Shown: positions 15,015-40,050 of the stretch, one piece after another
Layout of the letters: each line of letters begins with the position of its first letter
Position numbering within the stretch: the stretch's first letter is position 1
NCBI GenBank assembly: GCA_016235665.1
Contig: JACRJI010000013.1
Span: forward strand, 143,095 to 207,094
Length of the DNA stretch: 64,000 bases
Reading direction: 5' to 3'
Origin: a candidate division TA06 bacterium
GTDB taxonomy: Bacteria; Edwardsbacteria; AC1; EtOH8
Notes under the pieces: generated by a model
What the model saw: only the letters and a program-made list of their open reading frames with translations
Databases searched by the model: none
Told to the model about the DNA's origin: nothing
Translations under genes and position numbers: made by a program

Positions 15015-15070
15015 GTAAATTCGCCGTTTTTTAAAGAGCGTTTTTCATTCTTGATTGGAAGGACCGAACC

Positions 15071-17995: not shown

Positions 17996-18114
17996 TAAAC
18001 AAATAACTTTACACTTAAAAAAGGTAGTTATTTAACCTTTCAATATTGTTATTGACAAAGTAACACTTTAGTGCTAACATTAAATAAAATTCTACATAAA
18101 AAGGAGGAATTAGC

Positions 18115-19194
18115 ATGAAACGTATTATTTCAATATTGATTTTTTTAACAGCCGTATCGTTTACAGGGTGTACCATAAATAATTATACCATTTTACCGAC
18201 TCAACCTGATAACAATACTACTGGCACTGAATCATTTTCGATGGCCATGTCTTTAAAGCCTGCAATCGACAGTGGGTACACTATAACCAGGATAGGGGTT
18301 AAGATTGCCAATGGTACTTTTACCGACTCTATGGATTTAACGATCTCGGGAGATTCGGCAAAGGGGACATTTACCGAGCTTGTTCCTGGCACATATACCA
18401 TTACGGTCAAGGCTTACCAAAACACAATGCTTGTGGCTCAGGGAACCGGTTCCGGCGTAGTAGTGGCGGGTGAGATGAATCAGGCCTATATTCATCTTCA
18501 GTTCGTAACCACTACTGGTGATCTTGAGATCCTAGTGGATTGGGGTACCGTGGACGAACCATTATCGGGGTTGGTAGCCTCTTATCCGTTTACCGGGAAT
18601 GCCAATGATGTCAGTGGCAACGGCCATAACGGGGTGGTGGTCGGAGCTACACTAACCTCGGACCGCTTTGGCAACACAAATTCCGCTTATTTGTTCAACG
18701 GCACCAGCAATATCATTACTCTTTGCCCAGCAAACCAGTTGAGCCTTTATGACCAGGATTTTACAGTATCTGCTTGGTTCAACGGAAGTTCATTCGTAAA
18801 CCGTGATGCGACAATATTGGGCAACGATTATGGGACAACGAGTTCTCAATTGGCATTGATGGTCCGTTATAATAAACCGTTGATGGCATTCATTTGGAAT
18901 GATACTTACGGCAAAAGCGCTATTCAGATTAATACTTGGTACCACATTGTCTTCCGCTATAAGAAAAGCATCGGGGAACAGGGAATATTTGTAAATGGAA
19001 TTCAAGATACCCTGAGTTTAGGGCACAGCGCATTCATTGGCACCGATACAGTCAGGGTCGGACGCTGGAACAGAGGAAGTTCTGCTGTCGGCTCAACTTA
19101 TTTTATGGGCATCCTTGATGATATCCAAATTTACAACCGGGCAATAAGTGATATTGAGATACAAACCCTATACCATGTGAACGGTTGGCAATAA
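18115..19194 (+). CDS. lipoprotein with LamG/concanavalin-A-like lectin domain (AT-rich gene)
   Basis: Lipobox LTAVSFTGC. LamG-like jelly-roll signature (GNGHNGVVVGATLTSDRFGNTNSAYLFNG...FTVSAWF...WYHIVF). GC content is far below the flanks. Strong RBS AAAGGAGG. Confidence 0.7.
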   Translation: MKRIISILIFLTAVSFTGCTINNYTILPTQPDNNTTGTESFSMAMSLKPAIDSGYTITRIGVKIANGTFTDSMDLTISGDSAKGTFTELVPGTYTITVKAYQNTMLVAQGTGSGVVVAGEMNQAYIHLQFVTTTGDLEILVDWGTVDEPLSGLVASYPFTGNANDVSGNGHNGVVVGATLTSDRFGNTNSAYLFNGTSNIITLCPANQLSLYDQDFTVSAWFNGSSFVNRDATILGNDYGTTSSQLALMVRYNKPLMAFIWNDTYGKSAIQINTWYHIVFRYKKSIGEQGIFVNGIQDTLSLGHSAFIGTDTVRVGRWNRGSSAVGSTYFMGILDDIQIYNRAISDIEIQTLYHVNGWQ

Positions 19195-19207
19195 AGATGC
19201 AAATCAA

Positions 19208-19247
19208 AAGAGACCCCGTCAATATTTGACGGGGTCTCTTTTTTTTA
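19208..19247 (+). terminator. rho-independent terminator (AAGAGACCCCGTCAA-tat-TTGACGGGGTCTCTT + T8)
   Basis: Perfect 15-bp stem followed by TTTTTTTT, immediately after the stop of the LamG lipoprotein gene. Confidence 0.85.
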
Positions 19248-19272: not shown

Positions 19273-19306
19273 TTGCAAGGACAGGTTAAATTTGGTATCA
19301 TATAAT
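19273..19306 (+). promoter_or_regulatory. sigma-70-like promoter TTGCAA-17-TATCAT(ATAAT) for the flavoprotein/GGDEF genes
   Basis: Near-consensus hexamers with a 17-nt spacer, about 70 nt upstream of the coding start. Confidence 0.45.
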
Positions 19307-19377: not shown

Positions 19378-20580
19378 GTGATCGGAGGAGGTCCGGCCGG
19401 AATGATGGCCGCAGCCTCTGCCGCTAAAAATGGCGCAAATGTTGTGTTGCTGGAAAAAATGCCGGCTTTGGGCCGCAAATTGCTGCTTACCGGGCAGGGG
19501 CGCTGTAATGTCACAAATAACCTTGAACCCAAACAGTTCATTTACGACTGCGGTTCCGGCGCCCGCTTTTTGCATGGAGCCTTGAACCGTTTTTCCGGCC
19601 AGGATGCGTTGGATTTCTTTGAACAGCTGGGAGTGAAACTGGTGCTGGAGCGGGGAGGAAGGTATTTCCCGGAATCACAAAGGTCCATGGAAATACTGCT
19701 GGCCCTGCAAAAAGCCCTGAAGCAGGCCAGGGTGGATGTTGTTTGCTGTGCCAGGGTTTTGAATATTTCCAAACAGCCTGGCGGTTTTAAAATATCCACA
19801 CCCGATAAGAAATATACTGCGGATTCTTTGATAATAGCCACCGGTGGGAAGTCATATCCGGCCACCGGCTCCACCGGTGACGGTTATGGTTTTGCCCAAG
19901 AACTAGGGCACACTATCGTTCCCACCCGGCCCAGCGATGTGCCTCTGACGGTGAAGGAGGATTTTATCAAACAGCTTCAGGGGTTAAGCCTGAAGAATGT
20001 TGAACTGAAATTATGGCAGGGCCAGAAAAGGATTTCGTTATTCGGGGAGATGCTGTTCACCCATTACGGCATTTCCGGTCCGATGGCGCTGGATGCCAGC
20101 CGGGTGGCCGGCGGGTGGCTTAAAGACGGGCCGGTGCAATGTTCGCTGGACCTTAAGCCCGCCCTGTCAAACGAAGTGTTGGACCAGCGGCTGCTGCGCG
20201 ACATGGATTCCCAGGGCAGGAAGACCTACAAAAATCTTTTAAAAGGGCTGCTGCCGTCAAGCCTGATCCCGGTATTCTGCTTACTTTCCCGGATAAACCA
20301 GAACATCCTGGTCAACCAATTGAACAAAGAACAGCGGGGCGTGGTCAGAAAACTGATGAAGGGGATTCATTTCACCATCACCGGTTTAAGGGGCTATGAC
20401 GAAGCAGTGGTCACCGCTGGCGGAGTGGATCTCTCGGAGGTCAATCCCAAAACAATGGAATCCAAGAAAACGCCCGGCCTGTATTTTTGCGGGGAAGTAT
20501 TGGACCTGGACGGTCCTTGCGGGGGATACAACCTGCAGATAGCCTGGTCCACCGGGTTTGCGGCCGGGAACAGTGTCTAA
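19378..20580 (+). CDS. HI0933/BaiN-family NAD(P)/FAD-dependent flavoprotein
   Basis: N-terminal Rossmann GGGPAG dinucleotide fold (IVVIGGGPAGMMAA), HI0933-like middle and C-terminal regions. The true start is probably a non-ATG codon (GTG at 19378 or ATT at 19372). Confidence 0.75.
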   Translation: MIGGGPAGMMAAASAAKNGANVVLLEKMPALGRKLLLTGQGRCNVTNNLEPKQFIYDCGSGARFLHGALNRFSGQDALDFFEQLGVKLVLERGGRYFPESQRSMEILLALQKALKQARVDVVCCARVLNISKQPGGFKISTPDKKYTADSLIIATGGKSYPATGSTGDGYGFAQELGHTIVPTRPSDVPLTVKEDFIKQLQGLSLKNVELKLWQGQKRISLFGEMLFTHYGISGPMALDASRVAGGWLKDGPVQCSLDLKPALSNEVLDQRLLRDMDSQGRKTYKNLLKGLLPSSLIPVFCLLSRINQNILVNQLNKEQRGVVRKLMKGIHFTITGLRGYDEAVVTAGGVDLSEVNPKTMESKKTPGLYFCGEVLDLDGPCGGYNLQIAWSTGFAAGNSV

Positions 20581-20597
20581 AACCCAACTTGTTTTTG

Positions 20598-22229
20598 ATG
20601 TCCCAACAAAGGCATGACATAAACAAGGATCAGCGGCACCTGGAGGTGATGTCGGCTTGGGTGCGCTGGGCGGTGCTGTTCCTGGCGGCGCTGCTGACGG
20701 CGGTGCATCCCGAACAATTGGATTACAGAGGGCTGGGACTGATAATCGTTCTTGCTCTGGCGGCGGTTTACAACCTGCTGATAATCCTGGCCGGGGCCAA
20801 GGTCTTTGATATCTTAAGGCGCCAGCCCATCACCCTGATATTTGATCTGGTATTTGCCACACTGCTGATAGCATTTACCGGGGGCAGTCTAAGCCGGTTC
20901 TTCTATCTTTATTACCTGGCAGTGATCTGGGCGGCCCTGCTGGGGAACCGCCAGGGGGCCCTAAAAACTGCCGGCGCTTCTATCATATTATATATTTCAG
21001 TGGTGGCCTGGCGCCGGGAATTGTCTTGGGACCAATTGTTTTTGTACGACCTGTTCTTTAAGATAGGGTTGCTGTCCCTGACCGCCTTTTGGGCTGGGTT
21101 TCTTTCCGATCAGCAAAAACTCTGGCGCCGCCGTCATCAGGAGCTAAGTCAGGCGGCAGATGAGCTGACCCGCACCGCCTCCAACATCCAGTCGGTGGCC
21201 ATGTTCGGCATTGGGGCGCTGATCTCTTCATCCAAGAACATTGAGGAAACCCTGGGTCTGACCCTGGATGCCATAGAGGACATTGTAAAATCTGACCGCT
21301 GTTCCATCCTGTTGCTGGAATTCGGCACCAGGGAACTGGTACTGCGGGCAGCCCGGGGGATGAGGGCCGGGATGGTGGGCAAACTAAGACTGAAAGCCGA
21401 TCAAGGTATAGCCGGAGAAGTTTTGAAGACGGGAATTCCCAAGAACGTTCCCGACACCGATCTGGAGCCGATGTTCGTGCCATCGCCCAAGGGATACGAC
21501 AAGATCCGCTCCATGCTGGTGGTCCCTCTGATGGTCCGGGAAAAAAGGCTGGGAGTGATCAATATATCCGAGGTCAAGGGCAAAAGGGAGTTCACCTCCG
21601 GCGAGCTGGAGGCCATAAAGCTGATAGCCGATTACGCGGCCCTGGCCCTGGAGAACGCGGGCATCATGGAAGAGAAGGAGCGTGAGGCCACCACCGACGG
21701 TTTGACGGGGCTTTATAACTACCGCTATTTTTGGGAAGAACTTTTGGATTTAATGAAAGATGAACAGCAGCATCCCCTGTCCCTGATCTGGATGGACCTG
21801 GATCATTTCAAGGAATACAACGACGTCTTTGGCCACCTTAAAGGCAGCGAGATACTGAAGAGGATGGGCGATATGATCGGGACGGCCCTGGCCGGACAGT
21901 CTTCAGTGGTCTGCCGCTATGGCGGCGATGAATTTGCGGTTATTCTTAAAAACTCAGACCGGGGCCAGGCCTGCAGGGCAGCTGAGGCCATAAGGCTTTC
22001 CATCTACAGGACAGAATTCTCCCAAACCCGGCCAGGCGGGAAAAAACTTTCAGCCAGCTTGGGGGTGGCCGTTTTCCCGGGCGACGCCAAGGAAGGAAGA
22101 GAACTGATAGAAAAGGCCGATCAGGCCATGTATTTTGCCAAAGAACAGGGCAAGAACAGAGTGGCTTACTGGGATCGGGAAAAAATAAGTCTGACAAATG
22201 GATCAAAACATAAAAAGCAAATAAAATAA
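20598..22229 (+). CDS. membrane-anchored GAF-GGDEF diguanylate cyclase
   Basis: About 5 N-terminal TM helices, a GAF domain, and a GGDEF domain with an intact RYGGDEF active site. The upstream part of track ORF 20487 overlaps the preceding gene. ATG at 20598 chosen. Confidence 0.8.
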   Translation: MSQQRHDINKDQRHLEVMSAWVRWAVLFLAALLTAVHPEQLDYRGLGLIIVLALAAVYNLLIILAGAKVFDILRRQPITLIFDLVFATLLIAFTGGSLSRFFYLYYLAVIWAALLGNRQGALKTAGASIILYISVVAWRRELSWDQLFLYDLFFKIGLLSLTAFWAGFLSDQQKLWRRRHQELSQAADELTRTASNIQSVAMFGIGALISSSKNIEETLGLTLDAIEDIVKSDRCSILLLEFGTRELVLRAARGMRAGMVGKLRLKADQGIAGEVLKTGIPKNVPDTDLEPMFVPSPKGYDKIRSMLVVPLMVREKRLGVINISEVKGKREFTSGELEAIKLIADYAALALENAGIMEEKEREATTDGLTGLYNYRYFWEELLDLMKDEQQHPLSLIWMDLDHFKEYNDVFGHLKGSEILKRMGDMIGTALAGQSSVVCRYGGDEFAVILKNSDRGQACRAAEAIRLSIYRTEFSQTRPGGKKLSASLGVAVFPGDAKEGRELIEKADQAMYFAKEQGKNRVAYWDREKISLTNGSKHKKQIK

Positions 22230-22257: not shown

Positions 22258-23541
22258 ATGAAATTAGCAGTAGTGGGGACCGGATATGTGGGCCTGGTCT
22301 CCGGAGTTTGTTTCGCGGAATGGGGGCATCAGGTGATCTGCGTAGACAACGACGCGTCAAAGATCGAAATGCTTAAAAATGGACAGATACCGATATACGA
22401 ACCGGGGCTGAAGGAACTGATGGATAAGAACCTGGCCCGCCTGTCCTTTACCACTTCCATTGAAGAAGCCACCGACCAATCCGATATCATCTTCATTGCC
22501 GTGGGTACGCCGCCCCGGCCCAACGGGGAGGCCGATCTTTCCGCAGTGGAGTCAGTGGCCGCAACCGTGGCCCGCCGGATGAAAAGCTACAAGCTGGTGG
22601 TGGAAAAATCAACCGTGCCGGTGCAGACCGGCGACCAGGTCAAAAGAACCATGGCCCAGAACAATGTGAACAAAGTGGAATTTGACGTGGCCTCCAACCC
22701 GGAATTCCTGAGGGAGGGCACGGCCATAGAGGATTCCTTAAAGCCAGACCGGGTGGTGTTCGGCACCGACTCCGAGAGGGCCCAAAAAATGCTGATGGAA
22801 CTGTACAGCCCCTTGGGCTGCCCCATTGTGGCCACCGACATCCAGAGCTCGGAGCTGATCAAACACGCCTCCAATTCATTCCTGGCCATGAAGATCTCGT
22901 TCATTAATGCGGTCTCGGTGGTTTGCGAAAAATCGGGAGCCAACGTAGAGGAGGTAGCCTATGGCATGGGCTTGGACAAAAGGATCGGCAGAAGCTTTCT
23001 GAACGCCGGCATCGGCTTCGGAGGTTTCTGCTTCCCCAAGGACCTTCAGGCTTTCATCCGGATCTCGGAAAAGCTGGGCTACGATTTCAAACTGCTGAAG
23101 GAGGTCGAGGGGATCAACGACCAGCAGAAGATGAATTTCGTCAAAAAAATTGAAGAGACGGTATGGAATATTTCGGGCAAGACCATCGGCATCCTGGGGC
23201 TGGCCTTTAAGCCCAATACCGACGACATGCGGTTCGCCCCGTCCATCGAGATTATCGAAGCCCTGCAAAGGGACGGAGCCAAGATCAAGGCCTACGATCC
23301 GGTGTCCATGGACCGGGCCAAGCAGGTGTTGAAGGACGTTCAATACTGCGACAATCCCTACGATGTCGCCAGTGATGCCGACTGCCTGGCCATAGTCACC
23401 GAATGGGATGAATTTAAAAAACTTGATTTGGCCAAGATCAGAACAATGCTGAAGGTTCCGGCCATAGTGGACGGGCGTAATATCTTCGATCCTTTCAAAA
23501 TGAAGGAAATGGGCTTCACTTACAAGGGGATCGGCAGATGA
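22258..23541 (+). CDS. ugd: UDP-glucose 6-dehydrogenase
   Basis: [29 protein letters not shown]-binding N-terminus. Catalytic Cys context ([10 protein letters not shown]). UDPG/MGDP dehydrogenase family architecture. Confidence 0.85.
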
Positions 23542-24494
23542 GGATCATTGTGGCCGGAGGGGCCGGCTTTTTGGGCTCCCACCTTTGCGACCGGCTGCTG
23601 GCTGATGGGCACCAAGTGATAGCGCTGGACAACCTGGTCACCGGGAGTCTGGAGAACATCAGCCACCTGCAGGGCCGGAGCGATTTCAGTTTCATCAAAC
23701 AGGATGTGACCAAGCTATTCCGGATCGAAGAGCCGGTGGATTTCGTCTTTGATCTGGCTTCGCCCGCCAGCCCCATTGATTTTGTGAAAATTCCAATTGA
23801 GATTCTGCTGGTGGGATCATACGGCGTGCATAATCTGCTGGAGCTGGCCCGGGAGAAGAGGGCCGGGTTCCTTTTAACATCTACCTCCGAGGTTTATGGC
23901 GATCCCATGGTGCATCCCCAGGGTGAGGATTACTGGGGCAACGTCAATCCTATCGGTCCGCGCAGCGTCTATGACGAGTCCAAACGCTATGCCGAGGCCA
24001 TGACTATGGCTTATCAACGGTTCCATCAGGTCGACACCAGGATCGTCAGAATATTCAACACCTACGGGCCGCGGATGCGGTTGGACGACGGGAGAGTGGT
24101 GCCTGCGCTGATAGACCAGGCCCGGCATAACCGCCCGCTGACGGTATTCGGCGATGGCAGCCAAACCCGCAGTTTTTGTTATGTCTCGGACCTGATCGAG
24201 GGTATCTATTTGACAATGAAATCGGCGGAGCACCAGCCGATAAACCTGGGCAACCCCCACGAGATGTCCATACTGGAATTCGCCCGGGACATTCAAAAAT
24301 ACACCGGCACCAAAGCCCCGATCGAGCATAAGCCCCTGCCGGCCGATGATCCCAAGGTTCGAAGACCGGATATCGGCAGGGCCAGGAAGATCCTGAACTG
24401 GGAGCCGGCGGTCGGCTTTGAAGAAGGGATAAAAAAGACAATAGAGTGGTTCGCCAATAAAAACAACAATAACAAAACAGATGTTTCCGGTTAA
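23538..24494 (+). CDS. UDP-glucuronate decarboxylase (UDP-xylose synthase-like) SDR
   Basis: [20 protein letters not shown] Rossmann fold, YxxxK (YDESKRY), very similar in layout to UXS/ArnA-C-terminal decarboxylases. 4-nt overlap with ugd. Confidence 0.75.
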
Positions 24495-26061
24495 AAAAGC
24501 CACCGGGTATCTGATCTTGGGTCTGATACTGTTGATCGGTCTGGTGTTGAGGATGGATGGCTTAAAATGGGGGATCCCGAAGGCGCCGTACTGGAGGTCT
24601 TACCATCCTGATGAAAGGGTAGCCTTTTATACTCTGCTGGAGATGACTACTTCCAACGGATCCCTCAATCCCCATTATTTTATCAACCCCACCTTTCATT
24701 ATTACCTGATAGGATCGGTCTGGTGGGCGGCAAAAATCATTAAATTAGTGCCTTCAGCTAAGGATATTGTAAACGAATCTCCTTCGGTAACCCTGGATGA
24801 TGTAACCAATATCTGGCTGTTGGCCCGTTCCATCAGCGTAGTGCTGGGAGTTCTGACGATTTGGCTGACCTTTCTTTTGGGCCGGGAGTTCTTTGAAAAT
24901 GATACTTATGCTCTGGCCGGAGCCTGGATGACAGCTGTTATGCCTACCATGGTGGTGCAGTCACATTATTTGACGGTCGACGGGCCAGTGGGATTCTGGT
25001 TTGTGGCGGCATTGTTGTTGATGATCAGGGCTTTCAGAAACGGGAGAATGTGGGGGTGGGCTGCCGCCGGTCTGGTAGCAGGAATCTCGATGGCCACCAA
25101 GTACAACGCCCTGGCTGGCATCATACCGGTATTTACAGCTCTTTTGATCCGGCAGATAATGAACCGTGATGAGAAGGTCGAGAAGATGCCTATCAGGGCT
25201 CTGATTTTTGCATCCTGCCTGATAACAGGTTTTTTACTAGGGTGTCCATATGCGGTGCTTTCCTTCAGCGAGTGGAAAGAGGGGATCAATGGTTTGATGT
25301 ATTACAACGTTTTGCCCACCCAATGGCTTTATCCCTGGTTTGTCACCAGCCGCCTTTCCCTGGGCTGGCCGTGTTGGGTAATGTTACTGGTCTCCCTGAC
25401 AGCAATTTTCATAAAACCTGATAAAACGGGGATTGTTCTTGCAGCCGGTGTATTTCCATTATTTCTGATCTACGGCTACAAGGCTTCGCCTTTTATGCGG
25501 CACATGGTACTGTTAGTACCCCTGATGATATTACTGATAATATATGCTTTCAAGAAAGGCGGCGAATATTTCAGAAATCGTAGTTTTAAAATAATGGCTG
25601 GAGGGTTAATCTTTTTGACATCACTTTATGCCTTGGCTAACAGCCTGGCCTGGGTAAAGGTGATGTCCGGACAGGATACCAGGGAGGAAGCGGCAGAATA
25701 CCTCATTCAAAGCGTACCTATAGGTTCGAATATTGGTTTGGCCGGGAGGTCCTGGTTCTATACTCCGCCCTTGGAGGAGGACCAATATAATCTTGTCCGT
25801 TTGGAATACAATCCGGACAAGCTTGGCTATTTATCTCCACAGCTGGTTGTGATAAGTGAATACGAATCAAAACAATACGCCTTTTGCCGGGTGGCTCCCG
25901 AGGTACGGGAGAGCTTTTTCAAAATGTTCAATGAACGTTACCATGTAAAAAAGACATTTAGAAGAATTCCTCAGTACTGTGGAATAAAATTCGATGACTA
26001 TCCTCTGGCCGACTGGAATTATTTTTATCCCGAGATAACAATTTACGAAAGGACCTATTAA
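24481..26061 (+). CDS. GT-C fold polytopic membrane glycosyltransferase (ArnT/PMT-like, GT39/GT83 family)
   Basis: About 12 TM helices with an N-terminal periplasmic-loop acidic motif (YHPDERVAF), soluble C-terminal domain. Confidence 0.6.
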
Positions 26062-26741
26062 TGAGGCTTTCAGTGATCATGCCGGTTTATAATGAAAAGG
26101 CCACCATCGAAAAAATAATATCCCGGGTCCAGGACGTTCCAGTTGAGAAGGAACTGGTGATTGTGGACGACTATTCCAACGACGGCACACGGGAGATTCT
26201 TAAAAATTATGAAGGGAAGCCGGGCATCAAGATATGCTGGCATCCCCACAACCTGGGCAAAGGGGCCGGCGTTCGCACCGGTATTCGGGAATGCACCGGA
26301 GATTACATCATCATTCAGGATGCCGATCTGGAATATGACCCAAATGATGTTTTACACATGGTTCAGATTGCCCAGTTAAAAAATGCCGATGTTGTTTTTG
26401 GCAACAGATTTATGGGCCTTCACACAGGACTTTATTTTTGGAATGCCCTGGCCAACAAGTTTTTAACTTTCATGACCAATCTGGTCTATAATGCCTGGAT
26501 TGAGGATATGGAAACCTGTTATAAGCTGGTGCGCCGGGAAAAATTGCAACGATTGACGTTGAAAAGCAAAGGGTTTGACATAGAACCCGAGATAACCGGC
26601 AAACTGCTCAAACAGAAATTGAAGATATATGAAGTCCCCATCTCATACGATGGGCGGACCTATGAGGAAGGAAAGAAGATACGTGCCCGTGACGGAATCA
26701 TCGCCCTGTATACTTTACTAAAATATCGTTTCATAGATTAA
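26061..26741 (+). CDS. GT2 glycosyltransferase, DPM1/ArnC-like polyprenyl-phosphate sugar transferase (soluble form)
   Basis: SVIMPVYNE, VIVDDYSNDGT and QDADLEYDP motifs of GT-A polyprenol-phosphate glycosyltransferases. Confidence 0.75.
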   Translation: MRLSVIMPVYNEKATIEKIISRVQDVPVEKELVIVDDYSNDGTREILKNYEGKPGIKICWHPHNLGKGAGVRTGIRECTGDYIIIQDADLEYDPNDVLHMVQIAQLKNADVVFGNRFMGLHTGLYFWNALANKFLTFMTNLVYNAWIEDMETCYKLVRREKLQRLTLKSKGFDIEPEITGKLLKQKLKIYEVPISYDGRTYEEGKKIRARDGIIALYTLLKYRFID

Positions 26742-26758
26742 CATTATAAAAAGGTCGT

Positions 26759-27679
26759 ATGCTTAATAAAGTCACTACCATCAGGCAGGAAAAGGAAAAA
26801 GAATTTGTTGTCTGCAACAACTGTGGATCAAATCAACCGGTAAAATGCTTCGTCATTCAGGGGTTTCAAATAGTGGACTGCACCAAATGCGGTTTGCGTT
26901 ATGTGAACCCCCGATTGACCTCTGAAGCCATTAAGGTTCTCTACACTATTGATTATTTTAAAAGTGACGACTCAGTAGTGTATGGGTATGATGATTACAT
27001 CGCTGAACATGATACCATAATAAAAACATTCCAAAAACGCTGGAATAAATTGTCCGGTTATCTCCCCAAAACCGGTTCAATGCTTGATATTGGTGCCGCC
27101 TGTGGTTTTCTGATGGAAGTGGCCAAATATAACGGCTGGCAGTCCCGGGGGCTTGAAGTATCAGCCGATATGGCGAAGTTGGGCCATGATCAATACGGGC
27201 ATGATATTATGGTAGGGGCTCTCACGCACCCCGAACTTCAGCCCTCCAGTTATGATCTGATCACTATGTGGGATACCATAGAACACTCCCCGGATCCGGT
27301 TGGCGACTTGAAAAGAATTGGGAGATTGCTGAAACCCGGCGGTGTTTTGTCACTGATCACTCCAGATAGCGGAAGCCTGCATGCTAGAATATTCGGATCA
27401 AAATGGGTTGAATATCAGCGGCCACAGGAACATATCTATTTTTTCTCTCATCAATTGCTTGAAAAAATATTAAAACAGAATGGATTTGAAATCGCATGGT
27501 CCGGTACTGCCGGTAAATATGTAAGTTGGAAGTTTGCCCTGAACAGATTGCGCTGTTATTGGCCGGGTCTTATAAAAGTAGCAGAGTGGATCATGAAAAA
27601 AACAGGTATATATGAAACATTTACGTATATTGATCCCAAAGATAAGATGTCCATAGTGGCCAGAAAGAAAAAGGGGTAG
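26759..27679 (+). CDS. class I SAM-dependent methyltransferase with N-terminal CxxC...CxxC zinc ribbon
   Basis: CNNCGS...CTKCG zinc ribbon followed by a Methyltransf_11/23-like fold (LDIGAACGFLME, motif I). Confidence 0.7.
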   Translation: MLNKVTTIRQEKEKEFVVCNNCGSNQPVKCFVIQGFQIVDCTKCGLRYVNPRLTSEAIKVLYTIDYFKSDDSVVYGYDDYIAEHDTIIKTFQKRWNKLSGYLPKTGSMLDIGAACGFLMEVAKYNGWQSRGLEVSADMAKLGHDQYGHDIMVGALTHPELQPSSYDLITMWDTIEHSPDPVGDLKRIGRLLKPGGVLSLITPDSGSLHARIFGSKWVEYQRPQEHIYFFSHQLLEKILKQNGFEIAWSGTAGKYVSWKFALNRLRCYWPGLIKVAEWIMKKTGIYETFTYIDPKDKMSIVARKKKG

Positions 27680-27682
27680 CAG

Positions 27683-29338
27683 ATGGGCCGGAAATCAAAA
27701 CAGAATAAAACAGCTGCACCCCTTGCAGCACCCAAAGGCAAATTGCACCGATTAACGGGCTTTATTGAAAACCATCGTCTATTAGTGTTGTTCGCATGTT
27801 TAGTCATCGTGCTGTTGGCGGCTCTGATATCTTTTGATCCTAAACAATCCACTGGTGGTGATAACGGCACCTATATTTCCCTGACCCGGTCTTTGCTGGA
27901 TGGAAAGGGTTATCGTGATCTGTATATGCCGGGCGAACCGTACCATCACCAATACCCTTTTGGATATCCCTTATTGTTGGCAGCGATCGGCGCTTTTTTT
28001 AACCAATCATTTTTGATGTATAATATATTTTCGGTAATCTGCCTGATCGCAGGTTGTTGGGTAGTGTATGGATTAATGCACCGTTTATCCGGGAGCGAGG
28101 GTGATTGGCGGTCAGTATTACCGGTGACGATTGTGTTGCTGACAGGGCTAAATCCTTCTCTGCTTGAATTCTCACACTTGGCCCTGACAGAGATCCCGTA
28201 TTGTTTTTTTAGTTTGACTGGTTTGTTGCTGATCCTGCGGTCTGAACGCGAGCAGGGACTGTCCTATGTGTTATTGATCTTGGGACTAATTGTTTCGGCC
28301 TACAGCTATTATATTCGCCCCAACGGCATAACCTTACTTGGAGCGATAGTGATATATTTTATGTTTCGACGCAATTGGAAGGCGGTGATAATTACCGCAA
28401 TCGGAGCGTTGATTTTGTTGCTGCCTTGGACCGTTTACAACCACCAAACCGGTAGCGGTATGGGACAATCGGTAAGCATATTTTTCACCAAGGATGTTTA
28501 TAATCTTGACGCTGGAAGATTGGGATTTTTTGATATGTTGGGGCGGATGGTGGAAAATTGGCAAATATATTTCGGGTCTGTTTTACCGGCCATGTTTTTG
28601 CCGGTGGCTGGGACAGCGATCTCCGGTTTAGCCGGAGGCGGTAGAATTGCCGTTGCTGTGATCTGCTTCGGAATACTTATGACCGGCATAGTGACACAAT
28701 GGCGCCGGCAAGGGGTGCTTATTGGTTTGTATCTGACTGGGTATATACTTTTGACTTTAGTTTGGCATCCCACGGTCAGCAGCGACCGCTATCTTGTCCC
28801 GGTATATCCGTTGTTGTTATATTTTAGTTTATTTGGAGTAATTTGGCTGACGAACCAAATTGATGTTGTTTTAACCAAAGCAGTCATACCAGTACTGACG
28901 ATGATACTGCTGATAGCCGCAGCGGCCATTATTCTTCCCGAGGTAGCCAGCAATATGGAGATGCAGTCCGCCTACCGTAAGGGAGACCATCTGGCCGGAT
29001 ACGATCCGGCCTGGCGCAGTTTCTTCACCGCCGCGGAGTGGGTCAAAGCCAGCACCACGGAAAACAGCATCGTGGTTTCCCGCAAACCATCATTGTTCTT
29101 CCTTTCAGCTCAGAGGAAAACATTCTGCTATCCTTTCACCGCCAACCGGGATTCGGTTTTGAAAGTGATAGACCGGGCCGATTACGTGATGGTGGAACCG
29201 GTCAGCGGCACCGGGCAAAAATACCTGATCCCGGCCATCCAGCCGCTGCTGGACAAGAAATATAAAATCATATATGCCCAGGGCGAACCGCCCACCTATG
29301 TACTGCAGATAATAAAGGAGAATCCCAATGCCAGATAA
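27683..29338 (+). CDS. GT-C fold polytopic membrane glycosyltransferase (ArnT/PMT_2-like)
   Basis: Multiple TM helices, first periplasmic loop with D-x-Y motifs (GDNGTYISLTRSLLDGKGYRD), C-terminal soluble domain. Confidence 0.6.
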   Translation: MGRKSKQNKTAAPLAAPKGKLHRLTGFIENHRLLVLFACLVIVLLAALISFDPKQSTGGDNGTYISLTRSLLDGKGYRDLYMPGEPYHHQYPFGYPLLLAAIGAFFNQSFLMYNIFSVICLIAGCWVVYGLMHRLSGSEGDWRSVLPVTIVLLTGLNPSLLEFSHLALTEIPYCFFSLTGLLLILRSEREQGLSYVLLILGLIVSAYSYYIRPNGITLLGAIVIYFMFRRNWKAVIITAIGALILLLPWTVYNHQTGSGMGQSVSIFFTKDVYNLDAGRLGFFDMLGRMVENWQIYFGSVLPAMFLPVAGTAISGLAGGGRIAVAVICFGILMTGIVTQWRRQGVLIGLYLTGYILLTLVWHPTVSSDRYLVPVYPLLLYFSLFGVIWLTNQIDVVLTKAVIPVLTMILLIAAAAIILPEVASNMEMQSAYRKGDHLAGYDPAWRSFFTAAEWVKASTTENSIVVSRKPSLFFLSAQRKTFCYPFTANRDSVLKVIDRADYVMVEPVSGTGQKYLIPAIQPLLDKKYKIIYAQGEPPTYVLQIIKENPNAR

Positions 29339-30287
29339 GATCAATCTCTCGGTGGTGATTCCGGTCTACAACGAGGAAGAGAACATAGCCGAACTTTCAT
29401 CGCGGCTAACCAAGGTTTGTCAGTCCCTGGGAAAAAGCTACGAAATACTGTATGTGGACGATGGAAGCAGGGACGGGACGCTTGAAGCCATTAAAAAAGC
29501 AAAGTTGAAGGATAATAATATTTATGCAATCAGCCTGGCTAAAAACTTTGGCAAGTCGGGTGCCTATGCCGCCGGCTTCCATGAAGCCAAAGGGGACGTG
29601 ATAATCACCATGGACGGTGACCTTCAGGACCGGCCAGAACAGATCCCGGATTTTCTTAAAAAGATCGAAGAGGGATACGACCTGGTCACCGGCTGGAAGT
29701 ATACCGGGAAGGGGAAAAGGGCTTTGTCTTCAATCCTTTTCAACGGTCTGGTGCAAAGGCTCACTAAACTCAGAAGTATTCATGATACAAATTGTCCCTT
29801 TAAGGCCTACAAAGCCGAGATCGTAAGCAGCCGGGAAGAGAACAAGAACGCGGGATTGTGGATCTATGGCAATCTATACCGCTTCATTCCAGCCATGGCC
29901 TTTTGGAAGGGTTACCGGGTGACCGAGATCAAAGTTGAGAATGATCCCCGCCGATACGGGCATACAAAATACGGGCCAACTAGATTTGTCGGAGGATTTT
30001 TAGATCTCTTAACTATTGTATTTATCACCCAATACATAAAAAGACCTTTATATTTTTTTGCAATGATTGGTTTGTCCCTTCTATGCACCGGATTTTTATT
30101 TGACTTAGGCATAGTCCTATATGGCATTGTTTATGAAGGCAGGGTTGGCCATTTTGCAATGTTGATTTTGGGTCTTATTTGCATAGTGATTGGCATCCAG
30201 TTCATTTTTACGGGACTGCTGGCGGAAATGATAGTCCGCCTGCATCAGGAACAGCGAAGAGATATTCCTGTTTACAGGAAACAATAA
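29328..30287 (+). CDS. GT2 glycosyltransferase, ArnC/GtrB-like undecaprenyl-phosphate sugar transferase with C-terminal TM helices
   Basis: LSVVIPVYNEEENI, YVDDGSRDGT, MDGDLQDRPEQIP plus two C-terminal TM helices, as in ArnC/GtrB. Confidence 0.8.
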   Translation: MPDKINLSVVIPVYNEEENIAELSSRLTKVCQSLGKSYEILYVDDGSRDGTLEAIKKAKLKDNNIYAISLAKNFGKSGAYAAGFHEAKGDVIITMDGDLQDRPEQIPDFLKKIEEGYDLVTGWKYTGKGKRALSSILFNGLVQRLTKLRSIHDTNCPFKAYKAEIVSSREENKNAGLWIYGNLYRFIPAMAFWKGYRVTEIKVENDPRRYGHTKYGPTRFVGGFLDLLTIVFITQYIKRPLYFFAMIGLSLLCTGFLFDLGIVLYGIVYEGRVGHFAMLILGLICIVIGIQFIFTGLLAEMIVRLHQEQRRDIPVYRKQ

Positions 30288-30302
30288 TCTTTCGCAATAT
30301 AT

Positions 30303-31646
30303 TTGTTATTGGTGAAGAAAATATTTAAAAATCATTTTTTGCTGTTAGTTTTAACTGCGGCAAGCTTTTTTGCTTACAATGGACAGGACCTTCCTGATTA
30401 CGACGATGCGGCCATAACTTACCGCTATGCCGAAAACCTCGCGTCAGGCAATGGGTTTGTATATAACGTTGGGGAAAGGGTGCTGGGAACGACCACGCCG
30501 CTGTTCACTTTGTTGTTGGCGCTGGGAATAAAGCTGGGGACAAAGGTTCACTTGGTGTCTGCAATATTTTCTTTTCTATCCCTGGCTGCATCGGTATTGC
30601 TGTTATACCGCAAAAGCAATCTTCCCGGGAAGTTCTTTGTATTGTTTCTGCTTAATGTCCAGATAATGATAGGCGCGACCTGCGGAATGGAATGCGGGTT
30701 GTATTTTTTAATAGCATTGGCTGTTTTTTTGCTTTGGCAGGGCAAACACTATCTTTGGTCCGGTTTGGCAGGGGGGCTGGCTATGCTGACAAGGCCTGAC
30801 GGTATATTGGTGATTATTGCGCTCTTGGCTGCCTCTTTTTGGTCAGTTAAAAAGGGGATATCAGGGAAGCCTCTTTTACTGCTGTTGCTGGGTTTTTCGA
30901 TTGTGGCCGCTCCATGGCTGGTGTTCAGCTGGAGGTATTTTGGCGATATCCTGCCGATGAGTTTTTATGCCAAGGTCCACGGAGGGGTGAATGTTGATAT
31001 CCTATGGAGTCTTATTTACAAAAGCTTTTATCTGGTGCCATTTTTCATCATGGGGTTTTATTCCATGATGAAAAAGGCAAAGCAGGGGTGCTATGAGATC
31101 AGATTTTACCTGGCTGTCTGGTTCGTTCTTTATGCCCTGGCCTTCATCTTGATGAATCTGACCGAGAGAATGGTGTGGTATGTTTACCCGTTGGAAATGA
31201 TATATGTGTTGTTCTCATTGGACGGCTTGCAAATGGCTGGGCGTGCGATTGGTCACAGAAAAATACGCCCGGTCTGGCTGTTCGTTCCCTTTATCGCTGT
31301 TGCATTGTCATTTTACGGGTACGGACTCTACACCTATCACCGCTGGTTGAACGGGAAGGAAACAGCCAAGATTGAAGCCGGAGTCTGGTTATCTCAGAAT
31401 ACCCCCCAAAACGCCGTGGTGGCATGCCATACATCTCTGGGACAGGTGGGGTATTATTCCCGGAGAAAGATGGTGGACAATGCCGGATTGATAAATCCAA
31501 AATACGATTTTGAAACATTGATAAAAACATACCAGCCGGATTATATAAAAAGCCAGAAAGTGCTCAGCTTTTCCGGTTACATATTGGTTTATTGCCAGCC
31601 CATCAAAGGATTTGATGATTATATGATGATATATCAACGTATTTGA
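30303..31646 (+). CDS. polytopic membrane protein, putative GT-C-type glycosyltransferase
   Basis: TTG start per track. 10-12 TM helices. N-terminal DDAxITYRYAENLASGNGFVYN motif typical of some GT-C families. Final gene of the glycosylation cluster. Confidence 0.45.
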   Translation: MLLVKKIFKNHFLLLVLTAASFFAYNGQDLPDYDDAAITYRYAENLASGNGFVYNVGERVLGTTTPLFTLLLALGIKLGTKVHLVSAIFSFLSLAASVLLLYRKSNLPGKFFVLFLLNVQIMIGATCGMECGLYFLIALAVFLLWQGKHYLWSGLAGGLAMLTRPDGILVIIALLAASFWSVKKGISGKPLLLLLLGFSIVAAPWLVFSWRYFGDILPMSFYAKVHGGVNVDILWSLIYKSFYLVPFFIMGFYSMMKKAKQGCYEIRFYLAVWFVLYALAFILMNLTERMVWYVYPLEMIYVLFSLDGLQMAGRAIGHRKIRPVWLFVPFIAVALSFYGYGLYTYHRWLNGKETAKIEAGVWLSQNTPQNAVVACHTSLGQVGYYSRRKMVDNAGLINPKYDFETLIKTYQPDYIKSQKVLSFSGYILVYCQPIKGFDDYMMIYQRI

Positions 31647-31653
31647 AGGATTC

Positions 31654-32826
31654 ATGAGAAAAAAGAATATAATAATCCTGGGCTCCACAGGGTCAATCGG
31701 AACTCAGACCATGGAGGTCATCACTAAATATCCGCAGCTTTTCAAAGTGGTGGGCCTGGCGGCCAATTCACGTTTTGATCTTTTGGCCCTGCAGATAAAA
31801 CAATTCAAACCCCGGATGGTCTGCATCGGCGATACGGCTACCGGCCTGGCGGAGATAGACGGCCCGGGCTCAAAGTTCAAATTGGTCAAAGGTCCGCAGG
31901 GCTTAAAACAACTGGCTGCTCTCTCCGGAGCCGATATGGTAGTGAACGCCCTGGTGGGCTCGGCCGGACTGGAGCCGACTCTGGCCGCAATCCGGGCCGG
32001 GCACGACGTGGCCCTGGCCAATAAGGAAACCCTGGTGGCCGGGGGGTCATTGGTGATGCGGGCGGTTAAAAAGCACCAGATCCGGCTGTTGCCCATAGAC
32101 AGTGAGCACGTGGCCCTGCACCAGTGCCTGGACGGCCGGGATGCCAAGATGGTCAAGAACCTGATACTGACGGCCTCGGGCGGGCCCTTCCGCAGCCACA
32201 GCCCCAGGCAGTTGAGCCGGGTTAAATCCCGGCATGCCCTGAACCACCCCACCTGGTCCATGGGACGGAAAGTGACCGTTGACTCCGCCACCCTGATGAA
32301 CAAGGGGTTGGAGATGATAGAGGCCCATTACCTTTTCGGCATCCCGCCGGAACGGATCAAAATAGTCATCCACCCCGAATCCATAATCCACTCCATGGTG
32401 GAGTTCAAAGACGGCTCCATCATGGCCCAGTTGTCCACTCCCGACATGCGGCTGCCGATCCAATATGCCCTGACCCATCCCCAAAGGCTGCCCTCGCTGG
32501 TGAAGGACTGCCGGCTGGATGAACTTGGCAAGCTCACTTTTCATAAACCGGACCGGATGACCTTCAAATGCCTGGACCTGGCCTATCTGGCTTTGAAACG
32601 GGGGGGAGTGATCCCGGCGGTGATGAATGCCGCCAACGAAATAGCAGTACAGGCCTTTTTGGAAGGCAGGATAAGTTTTCTGCAGATCCCGGAATTGATC
32701 TCCGGAGTGATGGAAAAACACCAGGCCGCCGTGGTCAGGTCAGTTTCGGATGTCGTTTCCGCCGACCATTCAGCCCGGCTGATGGCGCAGGAGGATCTAA
32801 CCAGTTTCAGACCAAATAAACATTGA
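31654..32826 (+). CDS. dxr: 1-deoxy-D-xylulose 5-phosphate reductoisomerase
   Basis: IIILGSTGSIGTQT N-terminus, conserved LANKE...SEH...NKG motifs. Confidence 0.9.
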   Translation: MRKKNIIILGSTGSIGTQTMEVITKYPQLFKVVGLAANSRFDLLALQIKQFKPRMVCIGDTATGLAEIDGPGSKFKLVKGPQGLKQLAALSGADMVVNALVGSAGLEPTLAAIRAGHDVALANKETLVAGGSLVMRAVKKHQIRLLPIDSEHVALHQCLDGRDAKMVKNLILTASGGPFRSHSPRQLSRVKSRHALNHPTWSMGRKVTVDSATLMNKGLEMIEAHYLFGIPPERIKIVIHPESIIHSMVEFKDGSIMAQLSTPDMRLPIQYALTHPQRLPSLVKDCRLDELGKLTFHKPDRMTFKCLDLAYLALKRGGVIPAVMNAANEIAVQAFLEGRISFLQIPELISGVMEKHQAAVVRSVSDVVSADHSARLMAQEDLTSFRPNKH

Positions 32827-32931
32827 CAATCCGGCACCGGGTCTGTTATTCTTAAATGTTACAGGTGGCCTGAACCCTGCCTGGCAGAAGAGACCGATGC
32901 TCAACTAATCAACCAATAACTACCGACCGAC

Positions 32932-33615
32932 ATGGATTCAAAAATATTAGAATATATCCTGATAATCCCCCCGGTGCTGTTCGCCATCACCATTCACGAA
33001 GTGGCCCATGGGTTCATCGCTTTTAAAAGAGGCGATTCCACCGCTTTCCTGATGGGCAGGCTGAACCTGAATCCCCTGAAGCACCTGGACCTTTTCGGCA
33101 GTTTCATTTTCCCGGCCATGCTGATATTTTTCAAGGCTCCTTTTGTGTTCGGCTGGGCCAAGCCGGTGCCGGTGAACTTTTTCGCCCTGAAAAACCCCAA
33201 GCGGGACATGATCTGGGTCTCGGCGGCCGGGCCGGGCAGCAACCTGCTGGTGGCAGCAGCGGCCGGGCTTTTCTTCCGCCTGCTTTATCCCTTTTACGGG
33301 GGGCCGGAGACGATGCTGCACCCGGTGCTGGTGATCCTGTTCTATTTTGTACTAATAGACACCGCCCTGGCTGTGTTCAACCTGATCCCCATCCCGCCGC
33401 TGGACGGTTCCAAGATCCTGGCCGGGCTGCTGCCCGGGCCGCTTTCGGTCAAGTATTTGAGCTTGGAAAAATACGGGATGTTCATCTTTATGGCGCTGAT
33501 AATCATCATCCAGTTGACGAAGATCAATTTCCTTTCCTACGTGCTGGCCCTGCCGGTGGTCCTGATCTCGCAGTTCTTCGGGGGGCCGGAACTGTTTCAG
33601 TTCATGCCCCGGTAG
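32932..33615 (+). CDS. stand-alone M50-family (site-2-protease-like) membrane metalloprotease
   Basis: HEVAHG zinc motif in the first TM helix, NLIPIPPLDGSKIL second motif. No PDZ domain. Confidence 0.8.
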   Translation: MDSKILEYILIIPPVLFAITIHEVAHGFIAFKRGDSTAFLMGRLNLNPLKHLDLFGSFIFPAMLIFFKAPFVFGWAKPVPVNFFALKNPKRDMIWVSAAGPGSNLLVAAAAGLFFRLLYPFYGGPETMLHPVLVILFYFVLIDTALAVFNLIPIPPLDGSKILAGLLPGPLSVKYLSLEKYGMFIFMALIIIIQLTKINFLSYVLALPVVLISQFFGGPELFQFMPR

Positions 33616-39296: not shown

Positions 39297-39373
39297 GGCT
39301 CATGGCAGGTTCTGCCGAACTATATTATGGATCTTTTTGTCTCAAAACCAACAATATATACAAGGAGTCAACC

Positions 39374-39994
39374 ATGAAGAAAATATTACTGGCATCAGTG
39401 CTGGTTCTTCTTGCCGTTTCCGCTTTTGCCCAGAAGCCCCACGGCATCGTCAACCTTAAAACCGTTGACGTGATAATTGACGGCAAGGTAACCGAGGGCG
39501 AGTATCCCACCCACTATACGGATTCCTACACCGGCATCGGTGTCAGCTGGGTTTCGGACGGAAAATTGCTTTATGTGGCATTGGAAAGCCCGCATAAGGG
39601 CTGGGCGGCCATCTCATTTGGCGAGCATAAGATCCGGGGAAGCGCCATGATCATCGCCTATCATGACCCTTCGGGCCGCCGGGTGGACGAGCACATGGGC
39701 AGCTGGGTCTCCACCCACAAGGCCATAGAAAAGCCGAAATTAGTGGACTTCAAGACCGCCAAGACCAATTCCGGGATGATAGTTGAATTCTCCATGCCCC
39801 TGGCCCTTTCCAACGGGCAGGCCATAGTTCCGGGACAGCCGATGCCATTCGTTCTGGCCTATCACAAGAGCAAGACCTCGTTCAAAGGCCGGCCCAGCCG
39901 CAAGTCTTCCGGGATGCTGGTCCTGGGCAGGGCTGAGCAGGAAGGACAGGGAGAACCTGAGACGGCGGCCCCGGCTGATACCACGAAAAAGTAA
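39374..39994 (+). CDS. secreted DOMON-like domain protein (paralog 1)
   Basis: Signal peptide, then an all-beta ~170-aa domain with a DOMON-like pattern (GEYPTHYTDSYTGIGVSWVSDGKLLYVALESPHKGWAAISFG...AMIIAYHD). About 35% identity to the downstream paralog. Confidence 0.55.
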   Translation: MKKILLASVLVLLAVSAFAQKPHGIVNLKTVDVIIDGKVTEGEYPTHYTDSYTGIGVSWVSDGKLLYVALESPHKGWAAISFGEHKIRGSAMIIAYHDPSGRRVDEHMGSWVSTHKAIEKPKLVDFKTAKTNSGMIVEFSMPLALSNGQAIVPGQPMPFVLAYHKSKTSFKGRPSRKSSGMLVLGRAEQEGQGEPETAAPADTTKK

Positions 39995-40004
39995 ATGATA
40001 TATA

Positions 40005-40042: not shown

Positions 40043-40050
40043 GCCAGGGA

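Follow-up and report, generated by a model that had tools for sequence, protein, structure and literature searches.

A candidate polyprenyl-phosphate-dependent glycosylation locus with its own UDP-sugar branch, apparently reshuffled by recombination among TA06 bacteria

Introduction

Three-component systems, which combine a lipid carrier with a glycosyltransferase (GT) of the GT-C fold, are known for hexoses, amino sugars and uronates and, since 2024, for pentofuranoses derived from phosphoribosyl pyrophosphate (PRPP). Mycobacterial PpgS (Rv3631) and Rv3779 work with polyprenyl-phosphate-N-acetylgalactosamine (GalNAc), and Rhizobium RgtE and RgtA-D with dodecaprenyl-phosphate-galacturonic acid, obtained from a uridine diphosphate (UDP) sugar that is itself derived from UDP-glucuronic acid (UDP-GlcA). 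Here we analyze a cluster of eight genes in a 64,000-nt stretch of contig JACRJI010000013.1 from a candidate division TA06 bacterium (hereafter the window). It encodes UDP-glucose 6-dehydrogenase (Ugd), a short-chain dehydrogenase/reductase (SDR) assigned as UDP-glucuronate decarboxylase/UDP-xylose synthase (UXS), two GT2-family enzymes, three GT-C enzymes, and a methyltransferase. On balance, this is probably a locus for polyprenyl-phosphate-dependent extracytoplasmic glycosylation with its own nucleotide-sugar branch, and a surface-glycan locus made hypervariable by recombination. As in the PpgS and RgtE systems, a short GT2 would make a polyprenyl-phosphate sugar from a UDP-sugar for use by GT-Cs; unlike in those systems, the SDR is a decarboxylase and not a 4-epimerase.

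GtrA/GtrB/Gtr, ArnC-ArnE/F-ArnT and Lactococcus Csd (PMC8035078, PMC11127046) are three-component systems that, like this locus, join a GT2 polyprenyl-phosphate sugar synthase and an outward-facing GT-C in one operon. The cluster analyzed here differs in having no linked flippase, in its two GT2 and up to three GT-C enzymes, one GT2 being without transmembrane (TM) helices, and in its own Ugd/UXS branch, which implies that a UDP-sugar is the source of the donor, a pentose or uronate. The Arn pathway (Ugd, ArnA, ArnB, ArnC, ArnD, ArnE/F, ArnT) shares with it Ugd, a decarboxylating SDR, an ArnC-like GT2 and an ArnT-like GT-C, but formyltransferase, aminotransferase and deformylase are missing here and the SDR is of the UXS type.

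Lipid-linked pentoses are used by extracytoplasmic GT-Cs in the pentofuranose system of Citrobacter youngae O1/O2, which comprises PPPRS/UbiA, a phosphatase, the SDR epimerase ORF13, a GT136 GT-C and a MATE flippase; undecaprenyl-phosphate-xylofuranose (UndP-Xylf) is made there from PRPP via the UbiA-type enzyme and the SDR epimerase (PMC11127046). That route leads from PRPP to furanoses, whereas the SDR here is a UDP-GlcA decarboxylase. As no UbiA-family polyprenyl-phosphate phosphoribosyltransferase was found among the window genes scanned, and given the nature of the SDR, the predicted donor is xylopyranose, supplied via UDP-xylose (UDP-Xyl) and a GT2.

Two further systems act on proteins. 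The Streptococcus mutans Pgf operon encodes the GT2 PgfS, the epimerase PgfE and the GT-Cs PgfM1/PgfM2, and has its own adhesin acceptors (PMC12041528). It resembles our locus in combining an SDR, an ArnC/GtrB-like GT2 and GT-Cs, and genes for candidate acceptors lie within the locus of three relatives; it differs in its YfhO-type GT-Cs and GalNAc sugar, in a PgfS cut-off that is missed here, and in that protein acceptors are conjectural here. In Pseudomonas aeruginosa, the GT-C TfpW arabinosylates the pilin, and pilA adjoins tfpW (bioRxiv 10.1101/2020.04.19.049825). TfpW and mycobacterial AftB (9dlf) are GT-Cs with a polyprenyl-phosphate-pentose donor, and the family profile of one of our GT-Cs matches AftB; their donor is D-arabinofuranose from PRPP, and the window has no pilin gene.

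Results

A UDP-sugar branch of the UXS type

Eight plus-strand open reading frames (ORFs) lie within positions 22258-31646 (Table 1), matching exactly the span given in an earlier note on this DNA. The gene identities proposed there (Ugd, UXS, two GT2s, GT-Cs and a zinc-ribbon methyltransferase) all hold, the GT-Cs being three. No space remains within the span for a further plus-strand ORF of at least 80 aa.

Table 1. Coordinates of the cluster genes, the recombinant cassette and the flanking features in the window
Feature	Position	Strand	Description	Basis
Terminator-like hairpin	19206-19242	+	17 bp stem and T run; 3' end of the upstream Laminin_G gene
HI0933-like gene	19378-20580	+	HI0933-like flavoprotein	Pfam; synteny
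GAF-GGDEF gene	20487-22229	+	Membrane GAF-GGDEF diguanylate cyclase; longest ORF, overlapping the preceding gene	Pfam
ugd	22258-23541	+	UDP-glucose 6-dehydrogenase (makes UDP-GlcA)	Three UDPG_MGDP_dh domains; TIGR03026
uxs	23538-24494	+	UDP-glucuronate decarboxylase/UDP-xylose synthase	Similarity to human UXS1
GT-C1	24481-26061	+	PMT_2-family GT-C transferase	PMT_2, 50 bits (cut-off 26)
GT2a	26061-26741	+	Soluble DPM1/PpgS-like polyprenyl-phosphate GT2, 226 aa, 0 TM helices	Glycos_transf_2
Recombinant cassette	26336-28994	+	C-terminal two-thirds of GT2a, methyltransferase, TM domain of GT-C2
Methyltransferase	26759-27679	+	S-adenosylmethionine-dependent, N-terminal four-Cys zinc ribbon, no TM helix	Methyltransf_23, 84.8 bits
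GT-C2	27683-29338	+	ArnT-like GT-C fold	AlphaFold2 model and Foldseek; no Pfam match
GT2b	29328-30287	+	ArnC/GtrB/PgfS-like GT2, 319 aa, two C-terminal TM helices	Full-length matches
GT-C3	30303-31646	+	AftB-like GT-C	Family profile; D34-D35 motif
dxr	31654-32826	+	DXP reductoisomerase (isoprenoid precursor supply)	Pfam; synteny

Ugd scored 470 bits against TIGR03026 (cut-off 190) and 566 bits against the TuaD equivalog, under its cut-off of 700, and it is 90-94% identical across relatives. The SDR matched human UXS1 (4gll, 2b69) over residues 2-307 with an E-value of 6e-99 and 334 bits. Epimerases, the next-best family, reached 128 bits (3e-36) and ArnA about 90 bits, while the models for Ralstonia-type U4kpxs (76 bits, cut-off 294), GalE (114, cut-off 262) and RmlB were likewise far from their thresholds. 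This score gap excluded assignment as GalE, UDP-GlcA 4-epimerase, ArnA-C, U4kpxs or apiose synthase. The catalytic Thr/Ser-Glu and YxxxK and the conserved Arg expected of decarboxylating SDRs are represented in the translation by TSE, YxxxK and RRPD, the last within the stretch KVRRPDI, and we take these stretches to sit at the motif positions of human UXS1, as the match to that protein implies. The decarboxylase predicted in the earlier note is thus placed with UXS rather than with ArnA-C or the epimerases, and we regard it from its sequence as a bona fide UXS. Together, Ugd and UXS would supply UDP-GlcA and UDP-Xyl.

Two polyprenyl-phosphate GT2 homologues

The best match of GT2a in the Protein Data Bank (PDB) was the dolichyl-phosphate (Dol-P)-mannose synthase of P. 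furiosus (5mlz; 3.5e-18, residues 1-207), and its DAD motif lies within QDADLEY. AglJ was matched more weakly, and the PpgS model gave 2.8e-17 and 63 bits without reaching the cut-off of 370. GT2b aligned over residues 5-310 with ArnC (2e-46) and GtrB (1e-35) and matched the PgfS model (3e-42, 145 bits) below its cut-off of 500. Against the ArnC equivalog NF007986 (cut-off 529), GT2b scored 181 bits and GT2a 47 bits. These similarities mark both GT2s as homologues of synthases that load sugars onto Dol-P or undecaprenyl phosphate (Und-P).

Three GT-C enzymes and a zinc-ribbon methyltransferase

Single-sequence searches of the PDB with GT-C1 and GT-C2, and a profile search with GT-C2, returned no matches. 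Their folds were assigned using AlphaFold2 models and Foldseek. The GT-C1 model (pLDDT 89.6) matched STT3, ALG12, ALG9, AglB, ArnT and Pmt4, and that of GT-C2 (pLDDT 91) matched ArnT (5f15; E-value 7e-8) best, followed by ALG12, AglB, STT3 and PglB. The family profile of GT-C3 matched AftB (9dlf) at 3.7e-14; the AftB equivalog gave 27 bits against a cut-off of 1050. GT-C1 scored 18.9 bits against the ArnT equivalog NF009784 (cut-off 567), which GT-C2 and GT-C3 did not match at all. By hhalign, GT-C2 was linked to both GT-C1 (99.2%) and GT-C3 (99.6%).

All three proteins share a topology with a K/R-rich N-terminus and an acidic motif after the first TM helix. In GT-C1 this is an invariant D44-E45 in the first outer loop, while D60 of GT-C2 and D34-D35 of GT-C3 are each present in at least 90% of the sequences of their families. 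Sequence and fold place the predicted catalytic acidic motifs of all three in the first outward-facing loop. The closest relatives of GT-C1 carry TA06 or Candidatus Edwardsbacteria annotation. GT-C3 is 100% identical to the NCBI protein HZA73_08760 from a candidate division TA06 metagenome-assembled genome, for which NCBI places the start 12 codons later.

In the translation of the methyltransferase, the zinc-ribbon cysteines are C19-x2-C22 and C41-x2-C44, and the protein is predicted to be cytoplasmic. A search of the PDB with it was uninformative.

A recombinant cassette and a chimeric GT-C

Relatives of the window are named here by locus labels, L001 being identical to the window. Eight related loci were compared (L001, L002, L004, L009, L010, L026, L109 and L112). 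In blastn alignments of the window with L002, L004, L009, L010 and L026, homology ended exactly at 26335 and returned at 28947-28997. The first position corresponds to about codon 92 of GT2a, right behind the DADLEY motif, and the second to the start of the C-terminal domain of GT-C2.

Identities to the window follow these limits. The N-terminal part of GT2a is 89% identical in L109 and 83-89% in the others; its C-terminal part is 93% identical in L109 and 50-53% in the others. For the TM domain of GT-C2 (residues 61-430), L109 shares 76% and the others 29-34% by tblastn, or 25-29% to types B and C by alignment. The C-terminal periplasmic domain (residues 431-551) is 93% identical in L109 and 69-95% in the others. 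In the GT-C2 family, a common C-terminal domain is combined with discrete types of TM domain (A, B and C). When the type-A TM domain was used in an exhaustive HMMER search, 4049 relatives emerged, and the top one (P0277, 45% identity) ranked above the syntenic "orthologues". In outsiders such as P0277, both domains of GT-C2 diverge together (TM 45%, C-terminal 49%).

Because the two GT-C2 domains conflict in identity among relatives and diverge in step in outsiders, the comparison indicates that the C-terminal part of GT2a, the methyltransferase and the GT-C2 TM domain have been exchanged by recombination as a cassette. Their co-inheritance suggests that the three pieces handle the same lipid-linked donor. 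Third-position GC content (GC3) is 0.69-0.72 in ugd and uxs, 0.45-0.54 in the interior GT genes and 0.63-0.79 in the flanks. Low interior GC3 combined with a mosaic structure is, at the sequence level, the signature of a hypervariable surface-glycan locus. Reshuffled by recombination in close relatives, the locus looks like a site of surface-sugar diversification.

Core and accessory genes

Wherever the fetched sequence extends, the relatives share the left flank (HI0933-like gene, GGDEF gene, ugd, uxs) and the right flank (dxr, M50 peptidase, acyl-CoA synthetase). In every one of them, the variable region ends on the right at dxr. The invariant core of all eight loci is ugd-uxs-GT2a-GT-C2-GT2b, and everything else between uxs and dxr is optional. 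GT-C1 is present in the window, L002, L004, L009, L010 and L112 and absent from L026 and L109. Among these loci GT-C3 is confined to the window and L112, and beyond them just two further contigs were seen to carry it. The 306-aa methyltransferase is shared by the window and L109 (79% identity) and absent from the remaining loci; L026 has a different, non-orthologous methyltransferase of 196 aa in the same slot right after GT2a. L109 is the closest relative of the window (80-89% nucleotide identity), and the differences between them are two gene-precise indels, GT-C1 and GT-C3.

Three relatives carry two additional genes between GT-C2 and GT2b (L010:13932-15928, L026:11622-13618 and L112:7042-9034), which are absent elsewhere, including the window. 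One encodes a type IV pilin-like protein of 172-175 aa with a prepilin G/FSLLE motif (PF07963), and the other, overlapping it, a 492-493 aa cargo protein of the type IX secretion system (T9SS) with a Por_Secre_tail domain and W-rich repeats.

The earlier note had paired each GT2 with a GT-C. Since L109 and L026 have both GT2 genes and only one GT-C, GT-C2, the notion of two parallel GT2/GT-C pairs is contradicted, and GT-C1 and GT-C3 are better described as presence/absence variants.

Two paralogous clusters in one metagenome (L027:2356-8904 and L028:5082-11641) have a similar architecture with a different sugar branch. Their order is SDR, short GT2, DUF2304, GT-C, ArnC-like GT2, GT-C2-like GT-C and GT4, and genes for YfhO and LPG_synthase_TM proteins lie close by. 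Their SDR is not a UXS (29-30% identity).

Linkage of uxs and GT2a in other lineages

Since synteny among TA06 genomes was too broad to decide whether the link between uxs and GT2a is functional, other lineages were consulted. GT2a is the gene most consistently linked to uxs. A scan of metagenomes with the GT2a alignment gave at least 546 matches at about 50% identity, and 80 loci were kept for analysis of their neighborhoods. In about 6-8 of the 80, ugd and/or a true uxs (49-54% identity) lies directly upstream. The clearest cases are L065, L073 and L086 (GC about 0.70), where uxs is followed by GT2a at gaps of about 23-50 nt. Elsewhere, L008 (GC 0.62) has the order ugd-uxs-GT-C2-like-GT2a-GT-C1-like, with Ugd and UXS 63-64% and GT2a 49% identical. 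Overall, adjacency of uxs or ugd to GT2a recurs in at least five compositionally different lineages. These contexts favor the view that a GT2a subgroup uses sugars derived from UDP-GlcA, and xylose wherever uxs adjoins.

In L094 (positions 1042-10192), one strand carries uxs, ugd and a gene for a Wzx-like flippase and the other a GT87 GT-C and a GT2a homologue, followed by an oligosaccharyltransferase of the AglB/STT3 type. This may be a xylose-related step in the N-glycosylation pathway of another lineage. Distant homologues of GT-C1 (WOR-3, Stahlbacteria, L006, L007) showed no linkage to uxs.

GT-C3 leads to a different context. In L110 (positions 431-9482), a UbiA-family gene immediately precedes a homologue with 32% identity, and an SDR epimerase is encoded close by. 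The locus also has radical-SAM genes, a PMT_2 GT-C and a short GT2 with DUF2304. The gene set resembles a pentofuranose three-component system of the PRPP type, with the UbiA and SDR context known from Citrobacter youngae, beside a second lipid-carrier system. Judging from this single context, enzymes of the GT-C3 family may be suited to pentosyl donors.

Predicted transcription unit

Successive genes of the cluster are spaced by -4, -14, -1, +17, +3, -11 and +15 nt, and dxr follows 7 nt beyond. No convincing internal terminator was found in the cluster in a scan of 19-36 kb, where the sole strong hairpin lies upstream (Table 1). Promoter-like hexamers follow it at 19273-19306, and the hairpin is likely the upstream limit of the transcription unit. 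The layout of the eight genes fits a single transcription unit, in keeping with the operon-like arrangement described earlier. That unit may start at the HI0933-like gene and take in the GAF-GGDEF gene. A plain UDP-glucose 4-epimerase together with GT-Cs of unrelated families (such as O-antigen ligase), or genes not transcribed together, would have spoken against the earlier proposal, and the sequence analysis pointed to neither.

Among TA06/Edwardsbacteria relatives, all loci fetched far enough upstream have the HI0933-like gene at the head of the syntenic block. Orthologues of the GAF-GGDEF protein measure 534-540 aa, which puts the probable true start of the gene close to 20600. Its counterparts in relatives adjoin ugd or overlap it, by 4 nt in L002 and L004.

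Surroundings of the cluster

Among the proteins encoded in the window are several proteases that are T9SS cargo and a beta-barrel protein of the outer membrane, and the source organism is a diderm of the Fibrobacteres-Chlorobi-Bacteroidetes (FCB) radiation. Upstream, at 7133-19194, five co-oriented genes encode secreted proteins. Sorting domains of the T9SS occur in four of them (one C25 gingipain-like peptidase, two M14 carboxypeptidases and one M28 peptidase), and the remaining one is a Laminin_G_3 protein. L026 and L109 show partial synteny with this array.

Isoprenoid and lipid genes occur near the cluster (31654-33615, 52347-53336 and 56279-57175): dxr, followed by a short M50 (RseP-like) peptidase, and further on ispH and cdsA. 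The proximity of dxr may reflect a link to carrier-lipid supply or plain synteny. Scans of the window with Rfam at gathering thresholds and for tRNAs gave no matches.

Further downstream, positions 35470-38289 encode a 939-aa protein without Pfam match, consisting of a near-continuous E/K/Q-rich coiled coil and a proline-rich tail. The E/K/Q-rich coiled-coil gene accounts for the extreme AT skew of this stretch (0.42). Relatives retain it downstream of the locus (L026, 88%; Edwardsbacteria, about 40%), and a gene for a XerC-like recombinase follows. Two DOMON-domain proteins and then a fusion of ferredoxin-thioredoxin-reductase catalytic chain and rubredoxin-like domains are encoded at 39302-41534. 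Four tandem paralogues follow at 41921-43813, the window's lowest-GC stretch (0.39); their products are signal-peptide proteins of 109-115 aa without Pfam match that share the motif GWTIS...G.YY.KA. On the minus strand at 45123-49712, genes for GlnRS-like and GluRS-like class Ic aminoacyl-tRNA synthetases flank a DUF3800 gene, and GC is low (0.43) at 46-48 kb.

Discussion

The claim of the earlier note that the cluster serves extracytoplasmic glycosylation by lipid carrier and GT-C, fed by UDP-GlcA and UDP-Xyl, still offers the best reading. In the mechanism we propose, GT2a would transfer xylose from UDP-Xyl to Und-P, GlcA being the less likely sugar. The methyltransferase, acting at the cytoplasmic face of the membrane, would modify the lipid-linked donor or the UDP-sugar that precedes it, and an unlinked flippase would carry the donor across. 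GT-C2, as the core enzyme, would then transfer the sugar to an acceptor, with GT-C1 and GT-C3 as optional additions that may act on the same or further acceptors, and GT2b would supply a second lipid-linked sugar. Exchange of the cassette would alter the sugar or linkage added while the periplasmic domain of GT-C2 is retained. Because genes for the pilin-like and T9SS cargo proteins sit inside the locus in three relatives (L010, L026 and L112), we favor secreted proteins of these two kinds as acceptors, although lipopolysaccharide (LPS) or another glycan could also serve. Such genes within the locus recall pilA beside tfpW in P. aeruginosa and the adhesin acceptors of the S. mutans Pgf operon.

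A more specific version of this mechanism is offered tentatively, as a possibility that may well prove wrong. Here the DPM1-like GT2 makes polyprenyl-phosphate-xylose from UDP-Xyl, O-methylated in some alleles, and modular GT-Cs xylosylate secreted pilin-like and T9SS cargo proteins. The donor-handling TM domain of the GT-C and the sugar-selecting half of the GT2 would be swapped between strains as a cassette, the periplasmic acceptor-side domain being kept. Unrelated bacteria would use the same ugd-uxs-GT2-GT-C module, which would also act beside an AglB-type oligosaccharyltransferase.

The route from UDP-Xyl to polyprenyl-phosphate-xylose, so far undescribed, is favored because the adjacency of uxs and GT2a recurs in unrelated lineages. 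In the full-text literature we found no description of a GT2 that makes polyprenyl-phosphate-xylose from UDP-Xyl, which is suggestive only given incomplete coverage; only PRPP-derived UndP-Xylf was found. For the xylose decoration that the earlier note had proposed, the presence of UXS stands, and gene linkage is what points to xylose as the sugar transferred. Its envelope lipid or protein acceptor divides similarly: lipid A or LPS found no specific support, and the pilin-like and T9SS cargo genes of relatives point at least as much to proteins.

Several observations weigh against the glycosylation mechanism as proposed. The enzyme activities, the sugar and the acceptor are all inferred from sequence. 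Much of the TA06 synteny reaches unrelated housekeeping genes (dxr, M50 peptidase, acyl-CoA synthetase), which makes gene adjacency a weak argument as long as only this clade is considered. In the wider GT2a family (about 50% identity), about 90% of loci have no ugd or uxs nearby, and clustering of neighbors across the 80 loci revealed no conserved neighborhood; xylose specificity is therefore not a family-wide trait. A neighbor-joining tree, in which most GT2a members linked to ugd or uxs fall into a few clades near the TA06 clade, speaks for the link but lacks support values. One GT2a clade (L035, L077 and L042) is linked to ugd without uxs, which makes UDP-GlcA or another derivative an alternative donor. 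Pfam searches of the cluster and of the annotated window genes gave no flippase family (GtrA-like, ArnE/F SMR-like, MATE or Wzx-like); the missing flippase could be encoded elsewhere in the genome. A six-frame scan of the window found no prepilin motif, in line with the lack of a pilin-like gene there.

The sparse ugd/uxs linkage and variable neighborhoods of the GT2a family, together with a TA06 block that stays syntenic far past the glycosylation genes, would also fit a different account, in which the GT2s and GT-Cs use ordinary donors (Und-P-Glc, Und-P-Man or Und-P-GlcNAc) and Ugd and UXS feed an unrelated cytoplasmic Leloir pathway elsewhere. The difference in GC3 between ugd/uxs and the GT genes agrees with this. 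We nevertheless judge it quite improbable, as uxs or ugd adjoins GT2a in at least five lineages, uxs overlaps the following GT gene in the window, L026 and L109, and the cluster has no other glycosyltransferase able to consume UDP-Xyl. The acceptor admits two further alternatives. In one, which seems unlikely, the cluster modifies lipid A or the LPS core in the manner of ArnC-ArnT or RgtE-RgtA-D, adding a lipid-linked neutral or acidic sugar (Xyl or GlcA) in the periplasm and thereby altering surface charge and peptide resistance. The best characterized relatives of GT2b are indeed ArnC enzymes, ArnT is the top structural match of GT-C2, ugd belongs to arn operons, and the T9SS cargo and beta-barrel proteins of the window indicate an outer membrane. 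Yet the ArnC and ArnT equivalog scores are far under their cut-offs (181 vs 529 and 19 vs 567 bits), and the GT-C1 model fits STT3, ALG and Pmt enzymes no worse than ArnT. A hypervariable, modular locus with pilin and T9SS cargo genes in relatives is, moreover, atypical for lipid A. The cluster has no ArnB-type aminotransferase, formyltransferase or deformylase, confirming the absence of enzymes specific for 4-amino-4-deoxy-L-arabinose (Ara4N) that had been pointed out before. Membership in the Ara4N/Arn pathway was rejected on the two missed cut-offs and because ArnA-N, ArnB and ArnD are not among the cluster or flanking genes.

In the other, an exopolysaccharide or O-antigen-like polymer receives side-chain decoration after its polymerization, as in Gtr-type serotype conversion, and the upstream diguanylate cyclase would couple this to biofilm formation. 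The GGDEF gene is conserved directly upstream and overlaps ugd in relatives, the cassette-like variability recalls O-antigen and Gtr diversity, and systems that decorate polysaccharides are the best-known class of three-component systems (PMC11127046, PMC8035078). Against this stands the lack of Wzx/Wzy, an ABC transporter or an initiating transferase among the window ORFs scanned (mostly at least 200 aa), and we hold a polymer acceptor to be unlikely as well. The mechanism would overlap with that of our preferred reading, the acceptor being the sole difference.

The mosaic, hypervariable nature of the locus had not been recognized in the earlier note. The present analysis adds the division into core and accessory genes, the recombinant cassette with its chimeric GT-C, and the uxs-GT2a(-GT-C) module outside the clade. 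If the proposed route is true, a version fed by UDP-xylose would add a new donor class, polyprenyl-phosphate-xylopyranose, to the three-component systems and would give a role to many bacterial UXS genes whose product lacks a known destination. The close relatives also amount to a natural experiment: entire GT-C genes set them apart, as does a cassette of the GT-C TM domain and the C-terminal part of its partner GT2. Comparing them could reveal which enzyme parts set donor versus acceptor specificity, and how uncultured bacteria of the FCB group vary their surfaces.

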